Below, in pieces: positions 1-14,272 of a DNA stretch of 16,082 bases (position 1 is the first letter of the stretch; every line of letters begins with the position of its first letter). The notes under the pieces were generated by a model. It worked only from the letters and a program-made list of their open reading frames with translations. It searched no databases and had not been told where the DNA came from. The DNA comes from a virus. Location of the stretch: UHGV virus genome UHGV-0136597; one strand, 5' to 3'. The position numbers and the translations under genes were made by a program.

Positions 1-1503
1 GTCTTCAGATATACGTAACGGACCATTGCCATTTTTCATCTCATCGATGGCATCCATCATCGGATCAAGCTGGTCGTCGTGCGTATTGAAATCAGGATTA
101 ATGGCTTCCATCTCAACGAGGAAGTCGTTGATGAATGGTGCGCTGCTTGGCAACTTGATGTAACCGGATTCGATATAACCCTGTACGTCCATCAGTCGCG
201 TGTACTTATCCTTATCGCGCTGAATTGCTTTGATGGGGCATATCGCTTTTTTACGGATGTTCTGTATCAGGCCTGTGCCAGATGACTTGTCCTCTATCGC
301 CATGTGGCGAAGCGGCCCATTCTTCAGAGTTTTGCACTTTTCCCAGAATGCAACAGCACGGCGTTGTAATTCATCGGCCTCCCATTTACCGCGAATCATA
401 TCGATCAGATAGATGTACCCGTCAGTACCAAGCCCCCAGTGCTCGAATACTGAGAAGTCGTTGACCTCTTTTGTTTTCTGTGCGGTGTCTCCATAGACGG
501 CACGCCATTGCATGGGAGGGAGTGCCGAATATTCACCAAACCATTCAGACTTAATAAGCCCCCCGCCTTTGGCGGTTGGTCGTTGCTGATAAAGAGCATT
601 CCATACAAGAGAACCGCGCTGTTTGCACTTCTCTACGAACTCTCTCGGCATGCGCTCAGGAAACAGAATTTCACCGGGATTGCGCAGTCGATACACATTA
701 CCGTTGAGTTCATGAATCTCTTCCTTTTCAGCCTCCATTGGGAAGCTAACTACGCGCCAGCGTTCCCCGCCCTCTTCAGCTAGTTTTAATAACTGTCCGG
801 CGAGATCGTTTTGATGCCAGCGCGTCAGGATGATGACAATTCCGTTTATCTTCGGGTCAACACGCGTGAAGAATGTCGTGTCATACCAGTCCATCACCGC
901 TTCCTGGTAAGTTGGAGACGATGCGGTTTTGTAATCTTTCGCGGGGTCATCAATAACCCCAATATTCATACCCTGCCCGGTGATACCACCGTTAACGCCA
1001 GCAGAACGATATGAGCCGCCGTGTAGTTCGCCTTTGGCATCAACGGGTTCCCATAGCTCGGTTTTGTTGATACCGCCAGCCAGACTACGACCGGAAGGAA
1101 TTTTTACATCAGGGAAAACATCAGCGTACTTGTCAGAGGTGATAATGCGTTTAACGTCACGGCTCATTCGGTCTGACAGGTCAGAAGAATATGAGCACGA
1201 GATCATGTTCCATGATGGGTGCTGCCCTAACACATACGCTGGGAAGCGGCGAGAGCACAACTCACTCTTTCCTGAGCGCGGAGGGGCAAACACCATTAGC
1301 CTGGGCATGTTTCCGGCTTTAACTTCATCCAGAAAGTAATCCAGCTCAGCGCAAAGCAGCTCGTTAAACCAGCCTGTTTCATATTGGGGGTTAGTGTACA
1401 AAGTGAAATCGAGAAGGTTTTTTCTTGCTGAGCGGATAGCTAGCTCTTTGTGCAACTCATAAATCTGAGCGTTTCGATTCAAGCTGATTGGAGCGCCTGC
1501 CAT
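1..1503 (-). CDS. Terminase large subunit (N-terminal about 500 aa; C-terminus lies beyond the window start)
   Basis: One minus-strand frame is open from the ATG at 1503 to position 1. AAGGAG lies 7 nt upstream of the ATG. Translation begins MAGAPISLNRNAQIYELHKE and contains a Walker A-like motif (FAPPRSGKSE) and an ILTRWHQNDL motif typical of terminase ATPases. Lies directly downstream of the small subunit. Absent from the ORF track because no stop is in the window. Confidence 0.85.
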   Translation of the reverse strand, partial: MAGAPISLNRNAQIYELHKELAIRSARKNLLDFTLYTNPQYETGWFNELLCAELDYFLDEVKAGNMPRLMVFAPPRSGKSELCSRRFPAYVLGQHPSWNMISCSYSSDLSDRMSRDVKRIITSDKYADVFPDVKIPSGRSLAGGINKTELWEPVDAKGELHGGSYRSAGVNGGITGQGMNIGVIDDPAKDYKTASSPTYQEAVMDWYDTTFFTRVDPKINGIVIILTRWHQNDLAGQLLKLAEEGGERWRVVSFPMEAEKEEIHELNGNVYRLRNPGEILFPERMPREFVEKCKQRGSLVWNALYQQRPTAKGGGLIKSEWFGEYSALPPMQWRAVYGDTAQKTKEVNDFSVFEHWGLGTDGYIYLIDMIRGKWEADELQRRAVAFWEKCKTLKNGPLRHMAIEDKSSGTGLIQNIRKKAICPIKAIQRDKDKYTRLMDVQGYIESGYIKLPSSAPFINDFLVEMEAINPDFNTHDDQLDPMMDAIDEMKNGNGPLRISED

Positions 1504-2044
1504 TACCAAGCTCCTTCAGTTTCTCTTCAAGTAACTCTTCTGACATATCGGCATAACGAACAGGACCGCCATCAGCGCCAGTTATTTCTGTAGATGTTTG
1601 CTCTTTAAACGCCTGAACAGAAACATGACGCCCGAGCAATTCAAGGTTTTTAACCTTATCAGGCCATTTGATTTTCTTCAGAAGTGCGGCGCTATCTGCT
1701 GATGCCATCTCGACGACATCCATTCCTGATAGCGTTGTACGCCACACCTTAGGCCAGTCTTTAATGGGTTTTAGCTCACCGTTTTGCAGGAGAATGTCGA
1801 GCACATCCATCTGATCGATTTCAAGAAGGCGATTAAGTACGTATTCTGCATTTATTCCAACAGAGTCATTGCGTTGTGCTTTCAATTCGGAGATTCTGAA
1901 TTGTATGTCAGGTTTTGACAGGTTTTCGGATGCGGTACGGTTGGCTGTTTTTGCGCTGTACCCCGCCCGAATAGCCGCTTGCGTGGCATTTAAATCGATG
2001 AGGTACTCGCGACAGAACATTTCTTGCTTGTCGGTGAGTGCCAT
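1457..2044 (-). CDS. Terminase small subunit (P27-type family, not lambda Nu1)
   Basis: 195-aa ORF starting MALTDKQEMFCREYLIDLNATQAAIRAGYS, the conserved N-terminus of this terminase small-subunit family (recalled from memory). Its 3' end overlaps the large-subunit start by 47 nt. Confidence 0.9.
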   Translation of the reverse strand: MALTDKQEMFCREYLIDLNATQAAIRAGYSAKTANRTASENLSKPDIQFRISELKAQRNDSVGINAEYVLNRLLEIDQMDVLDILLQNGELKPIKDWPKVWRTTLSGMDVVEMASADSAALLKKIKWPDKVKNLELLGRHVSVQAFKEQTSTEITGADGGPVRYADMSEELLEEKLKELGNGRRSNQLESKRSDL

Positions 2045-2068
2045 AGTTTTCTCTAGAGGATTTCTTTA

Positions 2069-2302
2069 ATGAACTCAAAGCAAATTTTTTACCGAAATAC
2101 AGGTCATGATAATGAAACTTATATATTCCTGGACAAATTGGACAATGGCTCCTACCAAGTCAGGGCTGGTCATTCGTCGCCTGTGAGCCATTTTGAATGG
2201 GAGGATGATGAAACCATTCAGACAGTGGAAGAGTTTCTAGGTTCTAACCCATCATATACTGAACGTGTTCATCAACTAATTTCTGAGTTTGAAGCAGAAT
2301 AG
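2069..2302 (+). CDS. Hypothetical 77-aa acidic protein, divergent from terS (moron-like)
   Basis: ATG with GAGGA about 10 nt upstream. No signal peptide or recognisable motif. Opposite orientation to the late operon, like lambda bor. Confidence 0.4.
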   Translation: MNSKQIFYRNTGHDNETYIFLDKLDNGSYQVRAGHSSPVSHFEWEDDETIQTVEEFLGSNPSYTERVHQLISEFEAE

Positions 2303-2757
2303 TAATCACCACCCAAGCGACTCAACTGCCGTCTAGTTCATCATCCAAAGGACTAAAAGTAGATTCCTGACATTGAGAACCTCTTTATCCGCTTGTGGGG
2401 ATATCAGTTAAGTTATCCCGTGTAGGGTATAAGCCATTGTCGAGACCACTCATTGAATGGTCTCTGCAATAACCGATGTCTTTCCATCAGTCCGCCACCA
2501 CAAAGAATCTTTTTTGCCATAAGGCTGGAGGTTCATCTTTCAGTGGCTGCCAGTGTTATTTCCCCACTTACTGGCTTGGGTTGTTTCGTGGTACTGCCGT
2601 TAACTGGTGGCGCACAAATTTAGTTAAATCCGTTCTCGCCTGAACTATCTTTTACATACCCGGATTGTGGGGATGTAAATCACGGTTTCATTATCAAGCC
2701 CACCAGTAGATGGGCTTTGTAATGAAGAGTTGTTATGAAAATTGCTCTAAACAAGCA

Positions 2758-3246
2758 TTAATAGCCATCAGAAGTAATCGCTACAGATTTCAATCCCTCA
2801 ATGTCATCCTTGGACAGGGCGAACCATTCACCGTGCTTTCTCTTTGCGGCAAATTTGCGATGAAGCATGTTTTCAGTTTCTCTTCCACCAGGGATCAGGC
2901 ACTCAAGCTTCAAGCAGTCTGGTCCAGAGTTGCCAAGCGATTTGATGCGTTGTGGAATGTTGGATGAATACCCAATTTTGGTTAGCCCAGTTTTCTTCGA
3001 TGACAAAACGTATACCTGAGGAGGTTCTTTTCTCTGGTCTTCCATTACACGTCTCATTGTTGCCATAAGTCCGCCGTGCATCAGCATTTCAACAAAGAAC
3101 GCTGACCGAACACCTGACGACTTAAGCATGCCAGAAAATTCACTTGCCAATTCCATTAACTCTGCGATGTTTTCAGGAACTTTTTGGCAGTTATCTTCCT
3201 TGTATAAGGAAATCATTCTTTGAAGCTTTTCTTCTAATTGGTTCAT
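2758..3246 (-). CDS. T5orf172-domain (GIY-YIG-like) protein with an unknown N-terminal domain
   Basis: C-terminal half (VYVLSSKKTGLTKIGYSSNIPQRIKSL...LHRKFAAKRKHGEWFAL) fits the T5orf172 pattern as I recall it. Start placed at the ATG at 3246 (MNQLEEK; AAGG-containing SD upstream); the ORF-track start at 3282 is a GTG. GC content is visibly lower than the flanks. Confidence 0.7.
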   Translation of the reverse strand: MNQLEEKLQRMISLYKEDNCQKVPENIAELMELASEFSGMLKSSGVRSAFFVEMLMHGGLMATMRRVMEDQRKEPPQVYVLSSKKTGLTKIGYSSNIPQRIKSLGNSGPDCLKLECLIPGGRETENMLHRKFAAKRKHGEWFALSKDDIEGLKSVAITSDGY

Positions 3247-3395
3247 AGCGTCTTTACCTTTTAGAAAGTGAGCCTGTCTCACAGAAAAGCCGCCCCGAGA
3301 TGGTCGCCACCATATACGGCAGTTCTCAGGCTCAACTTTCTGAAAGGCTCGGGTGATGTAATATGCGCGTGAGATGCGCTGTGAAATTCAGATGT

Positions 3396-3421
3396 AAAAA
3401 AAGCCCCGCATCGCGAGGCTC
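3396..3421 (-). terminator. Rho-independent terminator downstream of Rz
   Basis: On the minus strand, AGCCTCGC-GAT-GCGGGGCT stem-loop followed by TTTTTTT, about 30 nt after the Rz stop. Confidence 0.55.
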
Positions 3422-3451
3422 ATTAAATGGACTTTGTGATTTGCAAAAAAA

Positions 3452-3913
3452 TTATTTCAGGCATTGCGTCCTGATGTATTCCTGCAGGTAGTTAACCTGC
3501 GCGGTTATCTTGTCGATTCCACTTCGGAGACGGTAATAATTGAGTTCAGCATCTGCTGTAAGTCCTGGGCTTTCTCCATCGCCCATGCTGCTGGCTCCGG
3601 TCGTTGACTTTGCACAGGTGGCGGCGACTTGCAGGCGCTTACGCCCAGCAGAAACATCAGCACGGAGACTTTCGATAGTCGCGTTAGCATCAGCAAGCTC
3701 CTTTGTATATCTGGCATCGAGTTCTGCTACGTCACGTTGACGCTTCTGCATGTCAGAGATCGTCGCCATAGCCGAATCTAATGCCATAGCGTTTTCGTCG
3801 CGCTGTTTTTTGTATTCAATGGCTTTATTGTGGTAATGATTAGCTGACCAGACGAGAGAACCGAATAAAGTCAGGAGGAAAGCAGAAATAACCAGCTTAT
3901 AGCGAAGTTTCAT
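3452..3913 (-). CDS. Rz: Rz i-spanin
   Basis: Start [27 protein letters not shown] with GGGGTGG SD, overlapping the end of R as in lambda. N-terminal TM segment and coiled-coil-like body; ends ...YLQEYIRTQCLK, resembling lambda Rz. The ORF-track N-terminal extension is rejected. Confidence 0.85.
   Translation of the reverse strand: MKLRYKLVISAFLLTLFGSLVWSANHYHNKAIEYKKQRDENAMALDSAMATISDMQKRQRDVAELDARYTKELADANATIESLRADVSAGRKRLQVAATCAKSTTGASSMGDGESPGLTADAELNYYRLRSGIDKITAQVNYLQEYIRTQCLK
3505..3690 (-). CDS. Rz1: Rz1 o-spanin lipoprotein, embedded in the +1 frame of Rz
   Basis: Embedded ORF starting MLTRLSKVSVLMFLLGVSAC with lipobox-like VSAC, then a proline-rich mature region (KSPPPVQSQRPEPAAW), matching lambda Rz1 architecture. 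Confidence 0.65.
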   Translation of the reverse strand: MLTRLSKVSVLMFLLGVSACKSPPPVQSQRPEPAAWAMEKAQDLQQMLNSIITVSEVESTR

Positions 3914-4373
3914 TAACCACCCCGCCAGCTTCTTTGAATTTGGCAATCAGACTATCGATCTTGTGTTCATACTGACCGTAGCCAGCACCGGGCAATGAAG
4001 CCCAAATATTGCTGCAACGATCAATAGCCTGACGGATATCGCCACGATCAATCATCGGTAAAGCGCCACGCTCTTTAATCTGCTGCAGTGCAACAGCGTC
4101 CTGGCTTTTCGGAGAGAAGTCTTTCAGGCCAAGCTGCTTGCGGTAGGCATCCCACCAACGGGAAAGAAGCTGATAGCGACCGGCTGCTGTTGATTTGAGT
4201 TTTGGGTTTAGCGTGACAAGTTTGCGAGGGTGATCTGAGTAATCAGTGAATAGCTCTCCGCCTACAATGACGTCATAACCATGATTTCTGGTTTTCTGCC
4301 GTCCGTTATCAGTTCCCTCCGACCACGCCAGCATATCGAGGAACGCCTTACGTTGATTATTGATTTCCACCAT
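3897..4373 (-). CDS. R: Endolysin R (lambda-type lytic transglycosylase)
   Basis: 158 aa beginning [53 protein letters not shown], near-identical to lambda R as I recall it. Confidence 0.95.
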
Positions 4374-4680
4374 CTTCTACTCCGGCTTTTTTAGCAGCGA
4401 AGCGTTTGATAAGCGAACCAATCGAGTCAGTACCGATGTAGCCGATGAACACGCTCGTTATATAAGCGAGATTGCTACTTAGTCCGGCGAGGTCGAGAAG
4501 ATCACGAATGAACCAGGCGATAATGGCGCACATCGTTGCGTCGATTACTGTTTTTGTAAACGCACCGCCATTATATCTGCCGCGAAGGTACGCCATTGCA
4601 AACGCAAGGATTGCCCCGATGCCTTGTTCCTTTGCCGCGAGAATGGCGGCTAACAGGTCATTTTTTTCTGGCATCTTCAT
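4357..4680 (-). CDS. S: Holin/antiholin S (dual start Met1/Met3)
   Basis: 107 aa beginning [39 protein letters not shown], near-identical to lambda S. The MKM dual-start motif is present; 3' end overlaps R by 17 nt. Confidence 0.95.
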
Positions 4681-4922: not shown

Positions 4923-4998
4923 TGGTGCTGGTTAACGGACTTGAACCGCTACCCATTCGCTTACAAGGCGACTGCTCTACCATTGGAGCTAAACCAGC
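4923..4998 (-). tRNA. tRNA-Thr (anticodon UGU), phage-encoded
   Basis: Minus-strand 76 nt: 7-bp acceptor stem GCTGGTT/AACCAGC, D-arm GCTC-CAATGGTA-GAGC, anticodon loop CUUGUAA, 5-nt variable loop, T-arm AGCGG-TTCAAGT-CCGTT, discriminator A and encoded CCA. One G27-A43 mismatch. Hand-folded, not run through a tRNA finder. Confidence 0.55.
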
Positions 4999-5003
4999 AT
5001 ATT

Positions 5004-5078
5004 TGGCGGGACAGCGTGGACTCGAACCACGATAAGAAGGTTAACAGCCTTCCGTAATGACCTTTATACGACTGACCC
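5004..5078 (-). tRNA. tRNA-Asn (anticodon GUU), phage-encoded, atypical
   Basis: Minus-strand 75 nt: anticodon arm GAAGG-CUGUUAA-CCTTC, T-arm CGTGG-TTCGAGT-CCACG, encoded CCA. The acceptor stem has a T-T mismatch and the D-stem is only 3 bp, so it may be divergent or partly degenerate. Confidence 0.45.
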
Positions 5079-5124
5079 AAATAAAAAAAGCCACCGTTGC
5101 AACTTAAGAGTCACTAACGGCAGC
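5079..5124 (-). terminator. Hairpin plus U-tract (terminator-like) between the HNH gene and the tRNAs
   Basis: On the minus strand, GCTGCCGTT...AACGGTGGC (9 bp with 2 G-U pairs, large loop) followed by TTTTTTTATTT, starting 8 nt after the HNH stop and abutting the tRNA-Asn 5' end. Confidence 0.4.
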
Positions 5125-5132
5125 TTATATCT

Positions 5133-5645
5133 TTAAACGGTATGATATTTCATTCTGGCGGCCTCAAAAGCCACAGCGGCAAGTTCGGCAGTGTCATGGT
5201 ATCCAAGGTTAATACACTTTCCAGACGCATTAATTATTGCTCTCCATTTCCCGTACTTAGCATCCCAAGACACGCCACGGTATCCAGATTTATTATTCTT
5301 CTGAATTTTCCTGTTTTGCATATTTTCGGAATGAGTGACAAGACGAAGATTTGATATCCGGTTATCTGTTCTTACCCTGTTGATGTGATCAATAAAACCA
5401 TCGGGCATGGTGCCATAAACAATCAACCATGCCAGTCTGTGAGCAGGGTATGCTTTACCATTAATCATAATCATTAAATACCCATCAGAATTTATTGATG
5501 AGCATTTCTTGAAAGCAAAACGAGAGTTCCATGTCAAAGTGGTCCTCTCTCTCCCCTGCCTCCATCTCCAGTGAAAGTCGCCTGATGATGGATTGTAATC
5601 AACAACAGAAAGCACCATTTCTGGCGTTAATTTTATTTCTTTCAT
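5133..5645 (-). CDS. HNH homing-type endonuclease with C-terminal AP2 DNA-binding domain
   Basis: 170 aa with HNH motif (GFIDHINRVRTDNRISNLRLVTHSENMQNR) and AP2-like segment (SGYRGVSWDAKYGKWRAIINASGKCINLGYHDTAELAAVAFEAARMKY). AT-rich relative to the flanks. Confidence 0.85.
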   Translation of the reverse strand: MKEIKLTPEMVLSVVDYNPSSGDFHWRWRQGRERTTLTWNSRFAFKKCSSINSDGYLMIMINGKAYPAHRLAWLIVYGTMPDGFIDHINRVRTDNRISNLRLVTHSENMQNRKIQKNNKSGYRGVSWDAKYGKWRAIINASGKCINLGYHDTAELAAVAFEAARMKYHTV

Positions 5646-5766
5646 CGCTTTACCTTAGGGATAGAGCCTGTTCGCGTAGATATGACAGCCAAGAGCGGAG
5701 CGATGTTTCCACCACCATATCTCAGGCCCATATCACTAAGACTCTTGTTTTGATTGCACGCGAATG

Positions 5767-5791
5767 CAAAAAGCCCACAGGAGGTGGGCTT
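5767..5791 (-). terminator. tR'-like rho-independent terminator downstream of Q
   Basis: On the minus strand, AGCCCAC-CTCCT-GTGGGCT followed by TTTTT, about 50 nt after the Q stop. Confidence 0.55.
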
Positions 5792-5831
5792 GTGATGGTT
5801 GCTGAATGCAAAAGCAGCAGCATATGTGAAT

Positions 5832-5861
5832 ATTATGGCTAAATGGCTAATTGCATGTCAA
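5832..5861 (-). promoter_or_regulatory. Candidate late promoter pR' (TTGACA-18-CATAAT) overlapping the 3' end of Q
   Basis: On the minus strand, consensus -35 TTGACA (5856-5861) and -10 CATAAT (5832-5837) with an 18-bp spacer. The predicted start lies about 35 nt upstream of the terminator hairpin, giving a short 6S-like leader. Q-binding element not defined. Confidence 0.5.
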
Positions 5862-6357
5862 GGCTTTTAACGGCAACATGCTTAACTTTCTCAACACGTT
5901 TACGCATTTTGAAAGCATTTTGCATTGGCTGGTATAAAACAAATAATGACGCTTTCAGGATGTCGTCAATTTCGTTTCTACAGGTTGCCAGTGAAGGTTT
6001 TCTCCATCCCTCGCCACCACGTCCACACATCTTGCGTGGCTTTGCAGTCGCGTGATAGTAGGATGCAATTGCTCGCTTAGATGAACCATGAGCGTAGTAG
6101 CTGAGGAGGATGCCAAAGGCTTTCTTGTCAATGTACATGACGGAATCGACGACCTGAGAAATCAACATTCCATCATCATCATTGCACATTGGCCTTGTCA
6201 TAACTCTTCCCGGCTCTACGCTCTCCATGAACTTCGCTATTACGCTGCTCATGCGCTTTTCCAGACGACCTGAATAAACCCATGCGCCCCACAGTTCAAG
6301 CCAGCCATTCAGCCACTCGTGCTGCTCTTTGGTGAGGTTTAGTTCTCTTATGCCCAC
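5839..6357 (-). CDS. Q: Late-gene antiterminator Q (non-lambda Q family, 82/QuuD-like)
   Basis: 172 aa with [12 protein letters not shown] and [10 protein letters not shown] motifs that I associate with the Phage_antitermQ family. GTG start overlapping the phosphatase stop. Position between the nin region and pR'/lysis genes. Confidence 0.8.
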
Positions 6358-13555: not shown

Positions 13556-14272
13556 ATGGAAAATAAAAAATCACTGACGACAGAACAGCTCGAAGACGCT
13601 AAGCGGCTTAAGGCTTTGTATGAGTCAAAAAAGAAAGAATTGGGAATAACCCAATACTCAATCGCTGATGAACTGGGTATCACCCAAGGAGCGGTAGGGC
13701 ATTATCTTAATGGCAGAAACGCGCTAAACGTTGAGGTTGCATCTGGTTTTGCACGATTGTTGCAAGTCTCAATTGCTGATTTTAGCCAGTCAATTGCTGC
13801 CAAGGTTGCAGAACAGGCAGAAAGCCTTAAGAGCGATGCCAACGTAAGGTATGCAGGGGAATACAGAGCAGGAAAGAGGTATCCGGTGTTAAGCAGTATC
13901 CAGGCTGGCTCGTGGTGTGAAGCATGCGAACCATACACCATTAAAGACATAGATGTTTGGCTTGAGTCTGACGCGCATATTCAAGGTAATGCGTTTTGGC
14001 TTAAAGTGGAAGGTGATTCAATGACGGCACCGGTTGGGTTAAGCATTCCAGAGGGAACATTCGTTCTTTTCGATACCGGAAGGGAGGCGATCAACGGCAG
14101 CTTGGTCATAGCAAAACTTTCTGACTCTAACGAAGCAACATTCAAGAAGCTGATAATCGACGGCGGAAATAAATACCTCAAGGGACTTAATCCTGCATGG
14201 CCTCTCGTGCCAATCAATGGAAACTGCAAGATTATAGGCGTTGCAATTGAGACAAAACTAAGGCTGGTTTGA
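13556..14272 (+). CDS. cI: CI prophage repressor (HTH N-terminal domain plus S24/LexA-like autopeptidase C-terminal domain)
   Basis: 238 aa with an HTH segment (ITQYSIADELGITQGAVGHYLNG) and a C-terminal domain (FWLKVEGDSMTAPVGLSIPEGTFVLF...ATFKKLIIDGGNKYLKGLNPAWP) resembling the P22 c2 / lambda cI cleavage domain. Divergent from cro across the operators. Confidence 0.9.
   Translation: MENKKSLTTEQLEDAKRLKALYESKKKELGITQYSIADELGITQGAVGHYLNGRNALNVEVASGFARLLQVSIADFSQSIAAKVAEQAESLKSDANVRYAGEYRAGKRYPVLSSIQAGSWCEACEPYTIKDIDVWLESDAHIQGNAFWLKVEGDSMTAPVGLSIPEGTFVLFDTGREAINGSLVIAKLSDSNEATFKKLIIDGGNKYLKGLNPAWPLVPINGNCKIIGVAIETKLRLV

Follow-up and report, generated by a model that had tools for sequence, protein, structure and literature searches.

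What kind of gene sits between the lysis and packaging genes of a lambdoid prophage, and what governs its expression? The question is raised by UHGV virus genome UHGV-0136597, whose 16,082 nucleotides (nt), a lambdoid prophage read against its late strand, form the window analysed here. Positions 2758-3421, on the minus strand, hold a gene for a protein with a C-terminal T5orf172 domain, together with its upstream signals. A first-pass annotation had described this gene as a moron of lower G+C content inserted between Rz/Rz1 and the terminase genes, behind a strong terminator hairpin next to Rz, and as a fusion of a T5orf172-type (GIY-YIG-like) nuclease domain to an unrecognised N-terminal domain of about 80 amino acids (aa). 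The position, the terminator and the domain make-up were confirmed, and the idea of an insertion was not. The gene is one of a set of mutually exclusive cargo genes, encoding Rha, KilA-N, ANT, HNH-AP2 or T5orf172 proteins, that occupy a conserved post-lysis slot in lambdoid phages behind a shared, structured leader. We put at about even the chances that this member of the set encodes a late-transcribed, translationally throttled accessory nuclease used in conflict between mobile elements.

The open reading frame (ORF) is listed as 2758-3282 from a GTG codon. The ATG at 3246 is the true start, giving a protein of 162 aa, because homology with loci that carry unrelated cargo ends exactly at ACGCTATGAA. 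The interval therefore resolves into a coding sequence, a 5' leader and a terminator, and the elements that matter most are the following.

2697-2716, minus strand: conserved hairpin AGCCCA-UCUACUGG-UGGGCU, ~42 nt past the T5orf172 stop codon
2758-3246, minus strand: T5orf172/MUG113 coding sequence, 162 aa, stop codon at 2758-2760; HK106 gp64 family, PHROG 4284
2761-3021, minus strand: C-terminal T5orf172/MUG113 domain, aa 76-162, GIY-YIG fold, basic (isoelectric point (pI) 9.4)
3022-3246, minus strand: N-terminal domain, aa 1-75, three long helices, acidic (pI 5.4)
3247-3400, minus strand: 5' leader
3256-3348, minus strand: 93-nt leader hairpin, ending 9 nt ahead of the start codon
3365-3379, minus strand: small predicted hairpin GCGC-AUCUCAC-GCGC, between the terminator and the main leader hairpin
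3401-3421, minus strand: intrinsic terminator directly after Rz, with a 9-bp stem (6 G-C pairs) and a T-run; first element of the slot leader

In database entries P0001 (224 aa) and P0003/P0004 (174 aa), the ORF is called upstream through the leader hairpin, from the GTG at 3282 or beyond. Because the conserved homology boundary falls at the ATG, these calls of 174-224 aa are over-extensions.

Interchangeable cargo behind a shared leader

Alignment from the Rz stop codon to the cargo start, across loci carrying T5orf172, Rha, KilA-N or B-type T5orf172 genes, revealed a leader of ~205 nt that is conserved up to the start codon, the stretch between terminator and hairpin being its least conserved part. 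The terminator is kept in all slot variants, and a rho-independent terminator is annotated at the same place in HK106 and epsilon34. On the 3' side, homology resumes ~42 nt past the stop codon, at the 2697-2716 hairpin, and CATTnCAAAGCCCATCTACnGGTGGGCTTGATAATGAAACCG is common to Rha, KilA-N and T5orf172 loci. When IMG/VR was scanned with a pattern lying inside the leader element, at least 120 loci were returned. Among the matches listed, 102 of ~120 hold a complete cargo ORF, encoding Rha (56), a longer 228-aa Rha type (2), KilA-N (28, often with ORF11CD3), HNH_3+AP2 (7), T5orf172 (7) or ANT (2). The leaders fall into three sequence types, each found with several kinds of cargo, and an Rz-like gene precedes 91 of 113 leaders. 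The only clearly deleted slot among the ~120 matches listed is at 3802-3916 of IMGVR_UViG_2698536618_000024, where the cargo has been lost and the 5' half of the leader hairpin is fused to the downstream flank. Because the slot is nearly always filled, and relatives carry other cargo in it, the T5orf172 gene is an alternative occupant rather than an insertion into an empty junction.

The gene is variably present and is not a fixed part of the lysis or packaging machinery, as the first-pass annotation had expected. It occurs in 3 of 378 phage records that share the lysis region (two records of HK106, and Chlobot via tblastn), the remainder having Rha, KilA-N or other genes instead. Among 5426 complete E. 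coli genomes, 82 have the gene and 1507 have one or both of its flanks. All E. coli copies are at least 99% identical, and they lie at several chromosomal sites in unrelated lambdoid backgrounds. Carriers include the window, with lambda-type S/R/Rz lysis genes and Terminase_2/Terminase_6; HK106, which is HK97-like; and DLP12/21-like prophages with EssD/RrrD lysis genes and Nu1/A-type terminases. One and the same allele thus neighbours three or more types of terminase and two or more types of lysis cassette, without the constant tie to one terminase type that marks a packaging nuclease of the HK97 gp74 type, and HK106 encodes a separate gp74-like HNH protein besides gp64.

As a sequence the gene is already catalogued, and it is an uncharacterised member of the T5orf172 branch of GIY-YIG nucleases. 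HK106 gp64 (YP_007151734.1) is 99.4% identical and has the same place after Rz and the terminator, the phage Chlobot gene product is 100% identical, and WP_016245257.1 and PHROG 4284 hold the same protein (99.4-100% across such records). Existing names are 'hypothetical protein' or, in RefSeq, 'GIY-YIG nuclease family protein'. The B-type homologues, namely epsilon34 gp68, g341c gp64 and a 161-aa protein of E. coli W, belong to the same two-domain family and share the slot and leader; they have diverged to ~30-33% identity and are likewise uncharacterised. A 49%-identical orthologue lies in a prophage of 39% G+C with a different lysis cassette, behind the same leader hairpin at 75 bits. Nothing on gp64, the slot, the leader or its second copy (described below) was found in the literature, to which access was limited, and priority is not claimed.

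In E. coli 65COLEC (NZ_CP070914.1, 3367000-3375488), a defective prophage that bears IS3/IS150 insertions and in which Rz and terS are truncated still has the T5orf172 gene and leader hairpin 100% intact. Many E. coli genomes have the gene at ~3.3-3.46 Mb, probably in the same remnant. The intact gene in this lineage could reflect selection for retention, or recent decay only.

The leader is strongly structured. The 166-nt stretch that was folded has a minimum free energy of -50.5 kcal/mol (z = -3.75), and 0 of 200 shuffles were as stable. At the base of the hairpin, GCCUUU pairs with AAAGGU, the Shine-Dalgarno sequence 9 nt ahead of the AUG (AAGG at ~3257-3260). Six diverged variants have the same architecture, with either the Shine-Dalgarno sequence or its spacer to the AUG paired; examples of their outer pairings are ACCUGC/GUAGGU and GCCUA/UAGGU. 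Covariation was assessed on 67 matches aligned to a covariance model built from the leader. In this model-fitted alignment, whose IMG/VR sequences were pattern-selected within the element and whose variation comes from few clades, 86.8% of cells pair (versus 42-54% with slid partners), double-sided changes occur at 23 of 34 pairs (versus 6-10) and the covariation score is 0.249 (versus ≤0.093), values reached by 0 of 500 shuffles. Independent support comes from the 75-bit hairpin of the 49%-identical orthologue, which shows further compensatory changes, and from 72 chance pattern matches in unrelated genomes, none of which matched the model. The structure is specific to the transcribed strand because it contains many G-U pairs, and so it acts as RNA rather than as a DNA cruciform. 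The small hairpin at 3365-3379 is also kept in variants, judged by eye in the alignment, with altered stems: CGCGC..GCGCG or, in the O157-type leader, AUGCGU..ACGCAU with a U-run after it.

Other accounts of the leader were rejected. A 19-codon ORF within the hairpin, a candidate leader peptide, loses its frame through indels of 1-2 nt, and one variant has TAG at the position of its ATG. An integron attC-like DNA recombination site disagrees with the strand-specific G-U pairs and with homology breakpoints that lie outside the hairpin. An internal promoter, as in T4 homing endonuclease genes, would need a -10/-35 pair, and no conserved pair is visible in the variants. A search of the window with the 4227 covariance models of Rfam at the gathering threshold returned the two tRNAs alone, and a permissive search of 2300-3500 returned nothing meaningful. 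On contigs of other genomes, the degenerate pattern gave 74 matches, of which 72 were chance (no covariance-model match) and 2 were real by the covariance model. We note that a 100-bit copy of the enterobacterial leader on a 4-kb contig in a Candidatus Nanosynbacter bin (JARKOR010000234.1) is almost certainly a binning contaminant.

These features bear on the label 'moron', which in the strict sense denotes an independent transcription unit with its own promoter. The sporadic presence implied by the label stood, and the promoter did not: a scan of 2000-3600 for the sigma-70 consensus found 0 sites versus 2.4 expected by chance, a crude scan that may miss weak promoters. The gene lies on the late-operon strand with its Shine-Dalgarno sequence buried. 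Downstream, where a moron would have a terminator, the conserved hairpin at 2697-2716 has no U-run on the minus strand and was not flagged by the terminator scan, and it is not a canonical terminator on that strand.

The two-domain protein

The C-terminal half of the protein matches the Pfam models MUG113 (PF13455; residues 90-151, 6e-15, 56 bits, cut-off 22.3) and T5orf172 (PF10544; residues 78-150, 2.8e-10, 41 bits, cut-off 20), and both models are matched by all 146 aligned homologues of this domain, which span 23-62% identity. Residues 1-75 have no Pfam match. The whole protein falls in phrog_4284 (9e-88), with function unassigned there, and has no match in NCBIfam. PADLOC-DB 2.0 gave one match, a partial one (7e-6) between the T5orf172 domain alone and the candidate PDC-S57, and no full-length match to any of its defence models.

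An AlphaFold model of the full-length protein (predicted local distance difference test (pLDDT) 87) has helices at residues 3-20, 23-43 and 49-71, followed by a beta-beta-alpha-beta-alpha unit. Because helical bundles swamped fold searches with the whole model, residues 72-162 were modelled alone with the 146 homologues (pLDDT 93, predicted template modelling score 0.83). This domain model has the GIY-YIG alpha/beta fold, a three-stranded sheet flanked by helices. Its fold relatives are headed by I-TevI (score 5.6), UPF0213 (5.1) and GRXS16 (5.0), with PD-T4-3 (4.9), UvrC (4.1), Eco29kI (4.0) and T4 EndoII (3.9) lower in the list. Searches of PDB sequences with the full-length protein and with family profiles gave nothing significant, the best match being UPF0213 at E = 0.097.

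The GIY-YIG catalytic residues that the first-pass annotation proposed to look for were found in part. Y79, K90, I91, G92, R100, E125, H129 and E140-W141-F142 vary little or not at all among 15 two-domain members and the 146 C-domain homologues. Y79, R100 and E125 of the GIY-YIG catalytic set are present and invariant; K90 stands in place of the second Tyr, the helix-1 His/Tyr is absent and E140 is at the expected Asn. By topology, Y79, K90 and R100 map to Y6, Y17 and R27 of I-TevI. This mapping was partly confirmed by hhalign, which aligned the first half only, at 5% probability, with a hand-entered I-TevI sequence. E125 would correspond in the model to I-TevI E75 and E140 to N90, both pairs being 15 residues apart.

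The N-terminal domain is more private. When 1.84 billion representatives were searched by profile, the C-domain was detected in 38,349 proteins at E ≤1e-3, but both domains together in only about a dozen clusters. The N-terminal domain profile matches only T5orf172 proteins of ~160 aa from Escherichia, Salmonella, Klebsiella and Vibrio, plus fragments. No meaningful PDB relative, other architecture or recognisable DNA-binding domain was found for it, and it contains no zinc-finger motif. From these searches the acidic three-helix bundle appears to be confined to a small two-domain family. Taken together, domains, fold and residues therefore make the protein look like a catalytically competent T5orf172 nuclease with a private partner domain that does not resemble a DNA-binding one.

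Surrounding features and a second leader copy

The other features of the window follow the order of a lambdoid late operon and its upstream regions.

Window start to ~1460, minus strand: terL (Terminase_6N/6C)
1457-2044, minus strand: terS (Terminase_2, 1.4e-39)
2069-2302, plus strand: ORF of 77 aa (ORF77), between terS and the T5orf172 gene
3452-3946, minus strand: Rz (Phage_lysis, 7.7e-39)
3505-3717, minus strand: embedded Rz1 ORF
3897-4373, minus strand: endolysin
4357-4680, minus strand: holin
4923-4998, minus strand: tRNA-Thr (UGU), between tR' and the holin gene
5004-5078, minus strand: tRNA-Asn (GUU), between tR' and the holin gene
5085-5127, minus strand: phage-21-type tR'
5133-5645, minus strand: HNH_3+AP2 endonuclease gene, 170 aa (Pfam HNH_3 1.9e-18, AP2 9.1e-8)
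5643-5755, minus strand: diverged second copy of the leader hairpin, which runs to the HNH-AP2 start codon (ATG)
~5768-5790, minus strand: terminator-like hairpin preceding the second leader copy
5839-6357, minus strand: Q
13556-14272, plus strand: cI

The minus strand also encodes cII, O and a primase-helicase, then NinB, Dam, NinG and a NinI-like phosphatase. The lower G+C content of the T5orf172 gene is real but modest (42.9%, compared with 48-49% in the lysis genes and 46.9% over the whole window), and terS (46.1%) and ORF77 (39.3%) are low too.

The leader recurs once in the window. The covariance model matches 5643-5755 on the minus strand (29.6 bits, E = 1.9e-6, filters off), and this second copy is placed as the first is, after a terminator-like hairpin and abutting a start codon, here that of the HNH_3+AP2 gene. 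The HNH_3+AP2 protein type also occurs in the post-lysis slot of other phages. Terminator, leader and ORF together form a block of ~700 nt (5085-5830 region, minus strand) that is absent from Sf6 at a precise junction and is flanked by the imperfect repeat GCTGCTGCT / GCTGCCGTT. The block lies just after the pR' -10 element and before the phage-21-type tR', and among 183 phage records sharing the region it is present only in HK629. As the block occupies the qut region, which is transcribed initially, an effect on Q loading is possible. Further diverged leaders, among the IMG/VR matches listed, precede a KilA-N gene, another HNH gene and an unassigned gene. Leader and promoterless cargo therefore move together as a module.

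Some side observations concern the flanks. The pair of tRNA genes between tR' and the holin gene is the same in Sf6, phage 21 and many P22-like phages. ORF77 matches nothing in Pfam or PHROGs; at the same position E. coli prophages have a YlcI/YnfO-family annotation, often followed by a DUF1398 gene, which is absent from the window. The 455 nt downstream of the T5orf172 gene (2303-2757) contain no convincing ORF. The hairpin at 2697-2716 is better as a plus-strand terminator, being followed there by TTTGT, and it possibly serves a convergent ORF77 transcript. Sequence from 2398 upward is common to HK106 and many phages, which places a mosaic breakpoint at 2398, with the slot region on one side and the packaging module on the other.

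Function and alternatives

Read as an accessory nuclease, the protein would be a small two-domain endonuclease, in which an acidic three-helix N-terminal domain is joined to a T5orf172/MUG113 GIY-YIG catalytic domain. The slot would supply its expression signals, namely the terminator, the small hairpin and the 93-nt hairpin that pairs with the Shine-Dalgarno sequence. Transcription would start at pR' and run within the Q-antiterminated late operon. A late transcript is expected because terS and terL lie downstream on the same strand and need it, and because 2000-3600 holds no sigma-70 consensus; Q-modified polymerase passes terminators in lambda. The hairpin would hold translation weak or conditional, fitting a toxic DNA-cutting protein, and RNase III processing of the long stem is a possible route to opening it. 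By analogy with the phage nuclease Odn and with T5orf172 homing endonucleases, the product would cut DNA late in infection, and its target would be a competing phage, a prophage, a satellite or a rival slot allele.

The closest functional analogue is Odn (Gp88) of phage ICP1, which joins an N-terminal DNA-binding domain to a C-terminal T5orf172 domain and cuts a satellite replication origin in a Glu-dependent manner (PMC8263062). Odn and the present protein are both phage-encoded and have the same domain order; both keep the Arg and Glu and miss the helix-1 His/Tyr (PMC8263062). The two differ in phage, host and genomic position, and activity has been shown for Odn alone. The RepA_N DNA-binding N-terminus of Odn was copied from its target, whereas here the N-terminus is an acidic helical bundle found in no other architecture.

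Several observations weigh against the accessory-nuclease reading. The second GIY-YIG Tyr is a Lys and the helix-1 His/Tyr is missing, though Odn is alike; the sole sequence link to the PDB is the UPF0213 match at E = 0.097, and hhalign relates the protein to I-TevI at 5%. The main gap is the N-terminal domain, which is acidic and not recognisably DNA-binding, and so offers no evident means of choosing a target. There may be a weak or non-consensus promoter, and most other slot occupants are not nucleases. The gene is also intact in the defective, insertion-sequence-riddled prophage of many E. coli strains, which hints at use by the host and hence at expression in the lysogen.

A wider proposal is put forward tentatively. 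Terminator, structured leader and promoterless ORF may together be an undescribed portable cassette of lambdoid phages, one that carries DNA-targeting, potentially toxic proteins (Rha, KilA-N, ANT, HNH-AP2 and T5orf172) at set positions in the late operon, one following Rz and the other following pR'. The hairpin might then be a regulated translational gate, opened for example by RNase III or a trans-acting factor, rather than a constitutive damper. The T5orf172 cargo might be an Odn-like weapon, with a family-specific N-terminal domain for recognising a protein or nucleoprotein that belongs to a rival prophage or satellite.

It is unlikely, in our assessment, that the gene is a free-standing homing endonuclease gene (HEG) whose product cleaves co-infecting phages with other cargo, at the slot or in a gene next to it, so that repair templated by the T5orf172-bearing genome copies the gene and its flanks. 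Its distribution agrees with homing, in that 82 E. coli genomes share one allele (at least 99% identical), placed at several sites and within lambdoid backgrounds unrelated to one another, with sporadic presence between conserved flanks that ~1500 genomes share. However, ordinary homologous recombination in the flanks suffices, because Rha and KilA-N genes swap likewise, and about half of the E. coli carriers resemble one vertically inherited defective prophage. The slot and leader also serve HNH-AP2 genes, which are of HEG type. In ICP1, T5-like and Vibrio phages, genes with a T5orf172 domain are regarded as HEGs; they usually have zinc-finger DNA-binding repeats and often lie near terminase genes, 35% of them by one count (PMC10448857). 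The present gene resembles these HEGs in its nuclease domain family, sporadic distribution and location near terminase genes (PMC10448857). It differs in being much smaller and in lacking the CapR, DUF723 or DUF4397 zinc fingers that 87% of the T5orf172 HEGs in the survey of Barth et al. bear (PMC10448857). Homing, too, is the weaker for the absence of a DNA-binding domain, the extra domain here being an acidic helical bundle.

The leader has its closest precedent in the same class of genes. T4-family endonuclease genes (I-TevI/II/III, segB and mobE) typically have their ribosome-binding site sequestered in a hairpin, and a late promoter within that hairpin frees it (PMC2988022). In both cases a nuclease gene lies within a long polycistronic transcript and has its Shine-Dalgarno sequence paired in a stable stem. 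Unlike the T4-family hairpins, the present leader has no conserved internal promoter that could be found, also serves non-nuclease cargo and forms a sequence family across many phages.

A true moron, that is, a nuclease expressed from the prophage for defence or superinfection exclusion and protecting the lysogen, seems decidedly improbable. The gene is bracketed by hairpins, has a somewhat lower G+C content and is kept intact in a decayed prophage lineage, and its T5orf172 domain has the weak PADLOC match to PDC-S57 (7e-6). That match is partial and to an unvalidated candidate, and NCBIfam gave none; the gene has no promoter consensus, a sequestered Shine-Dalgarno sequence and a place on the late-operon strand, and it shares its leader with Rha, KilA-N and ANT genes, whose products are not known defence effectors at this position. 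The comparison with lambda bor is instructive. Both are variable accessory genes between Rz and the packaging end, with shifted base composition. The bor gene of lambda lies on the opposite strand, has its own promoter and is expressed in lysogens, whereas the T5orf172 gene is on the late strand with no detectable promoter and an occluded Shine-Dalgarno sequence.

Very doubtful is a non-catalytic DNA-binding or regulatory protein like its slot-mates, for example an antirepressor-like factor acting on other prophages. Most slot occupants are indeed Rha, KilA-N or ANT, close C-domain homologues are fused to Rha, AntA, GntR and helix-turn-helix domains, and CapR of PLE, a domesticated relative of T5orf172 HEGs, works as a repressor. 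The T5orf172 domain was reportedly first described, by Iyer et al. in 2002, within the Bro-N/KilA-N domain-shuffling network. Yet the catalytic-type Tyr, Arg and Glu are invariant in 146 homologues, a pattern difficult to account for unless an active site is present. A role as an accessory packaging nuclease, comparable to that of the HK97 gp74 HNH protein encoded beside the terminase genes, is close to refuted: the gene is immediately upstream of terS and terL, but the identical allele occurs with Terminase_2/Terminase_6, HK97-type and lambda Nu1/A-type terminases, HK106 has its gp74-like HNH protein separately, and most phages with these modules are without the T5orf172 gene.

The gene itself is ordinary; the parts of moderate interest are the hairpin-gated, cargo-swapping slot and the second copy of its leader. 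The leader is an RNA element absent from Rfam, and its recognition would improve start-codon calls. The slot belongs to very common prophages of E. coli, Shigella and Salmonella and places nuclease, Rha, KilA-N and ANT genes behind one RNA hairpin, which suggests that these cargo proteins share a purpose and one tight form of translational control. What accessory proteins such as Rha, KilA-N and T5orf172 do for temperate phages is a long-standing puzzle, and the shared slot makes it directly testable.

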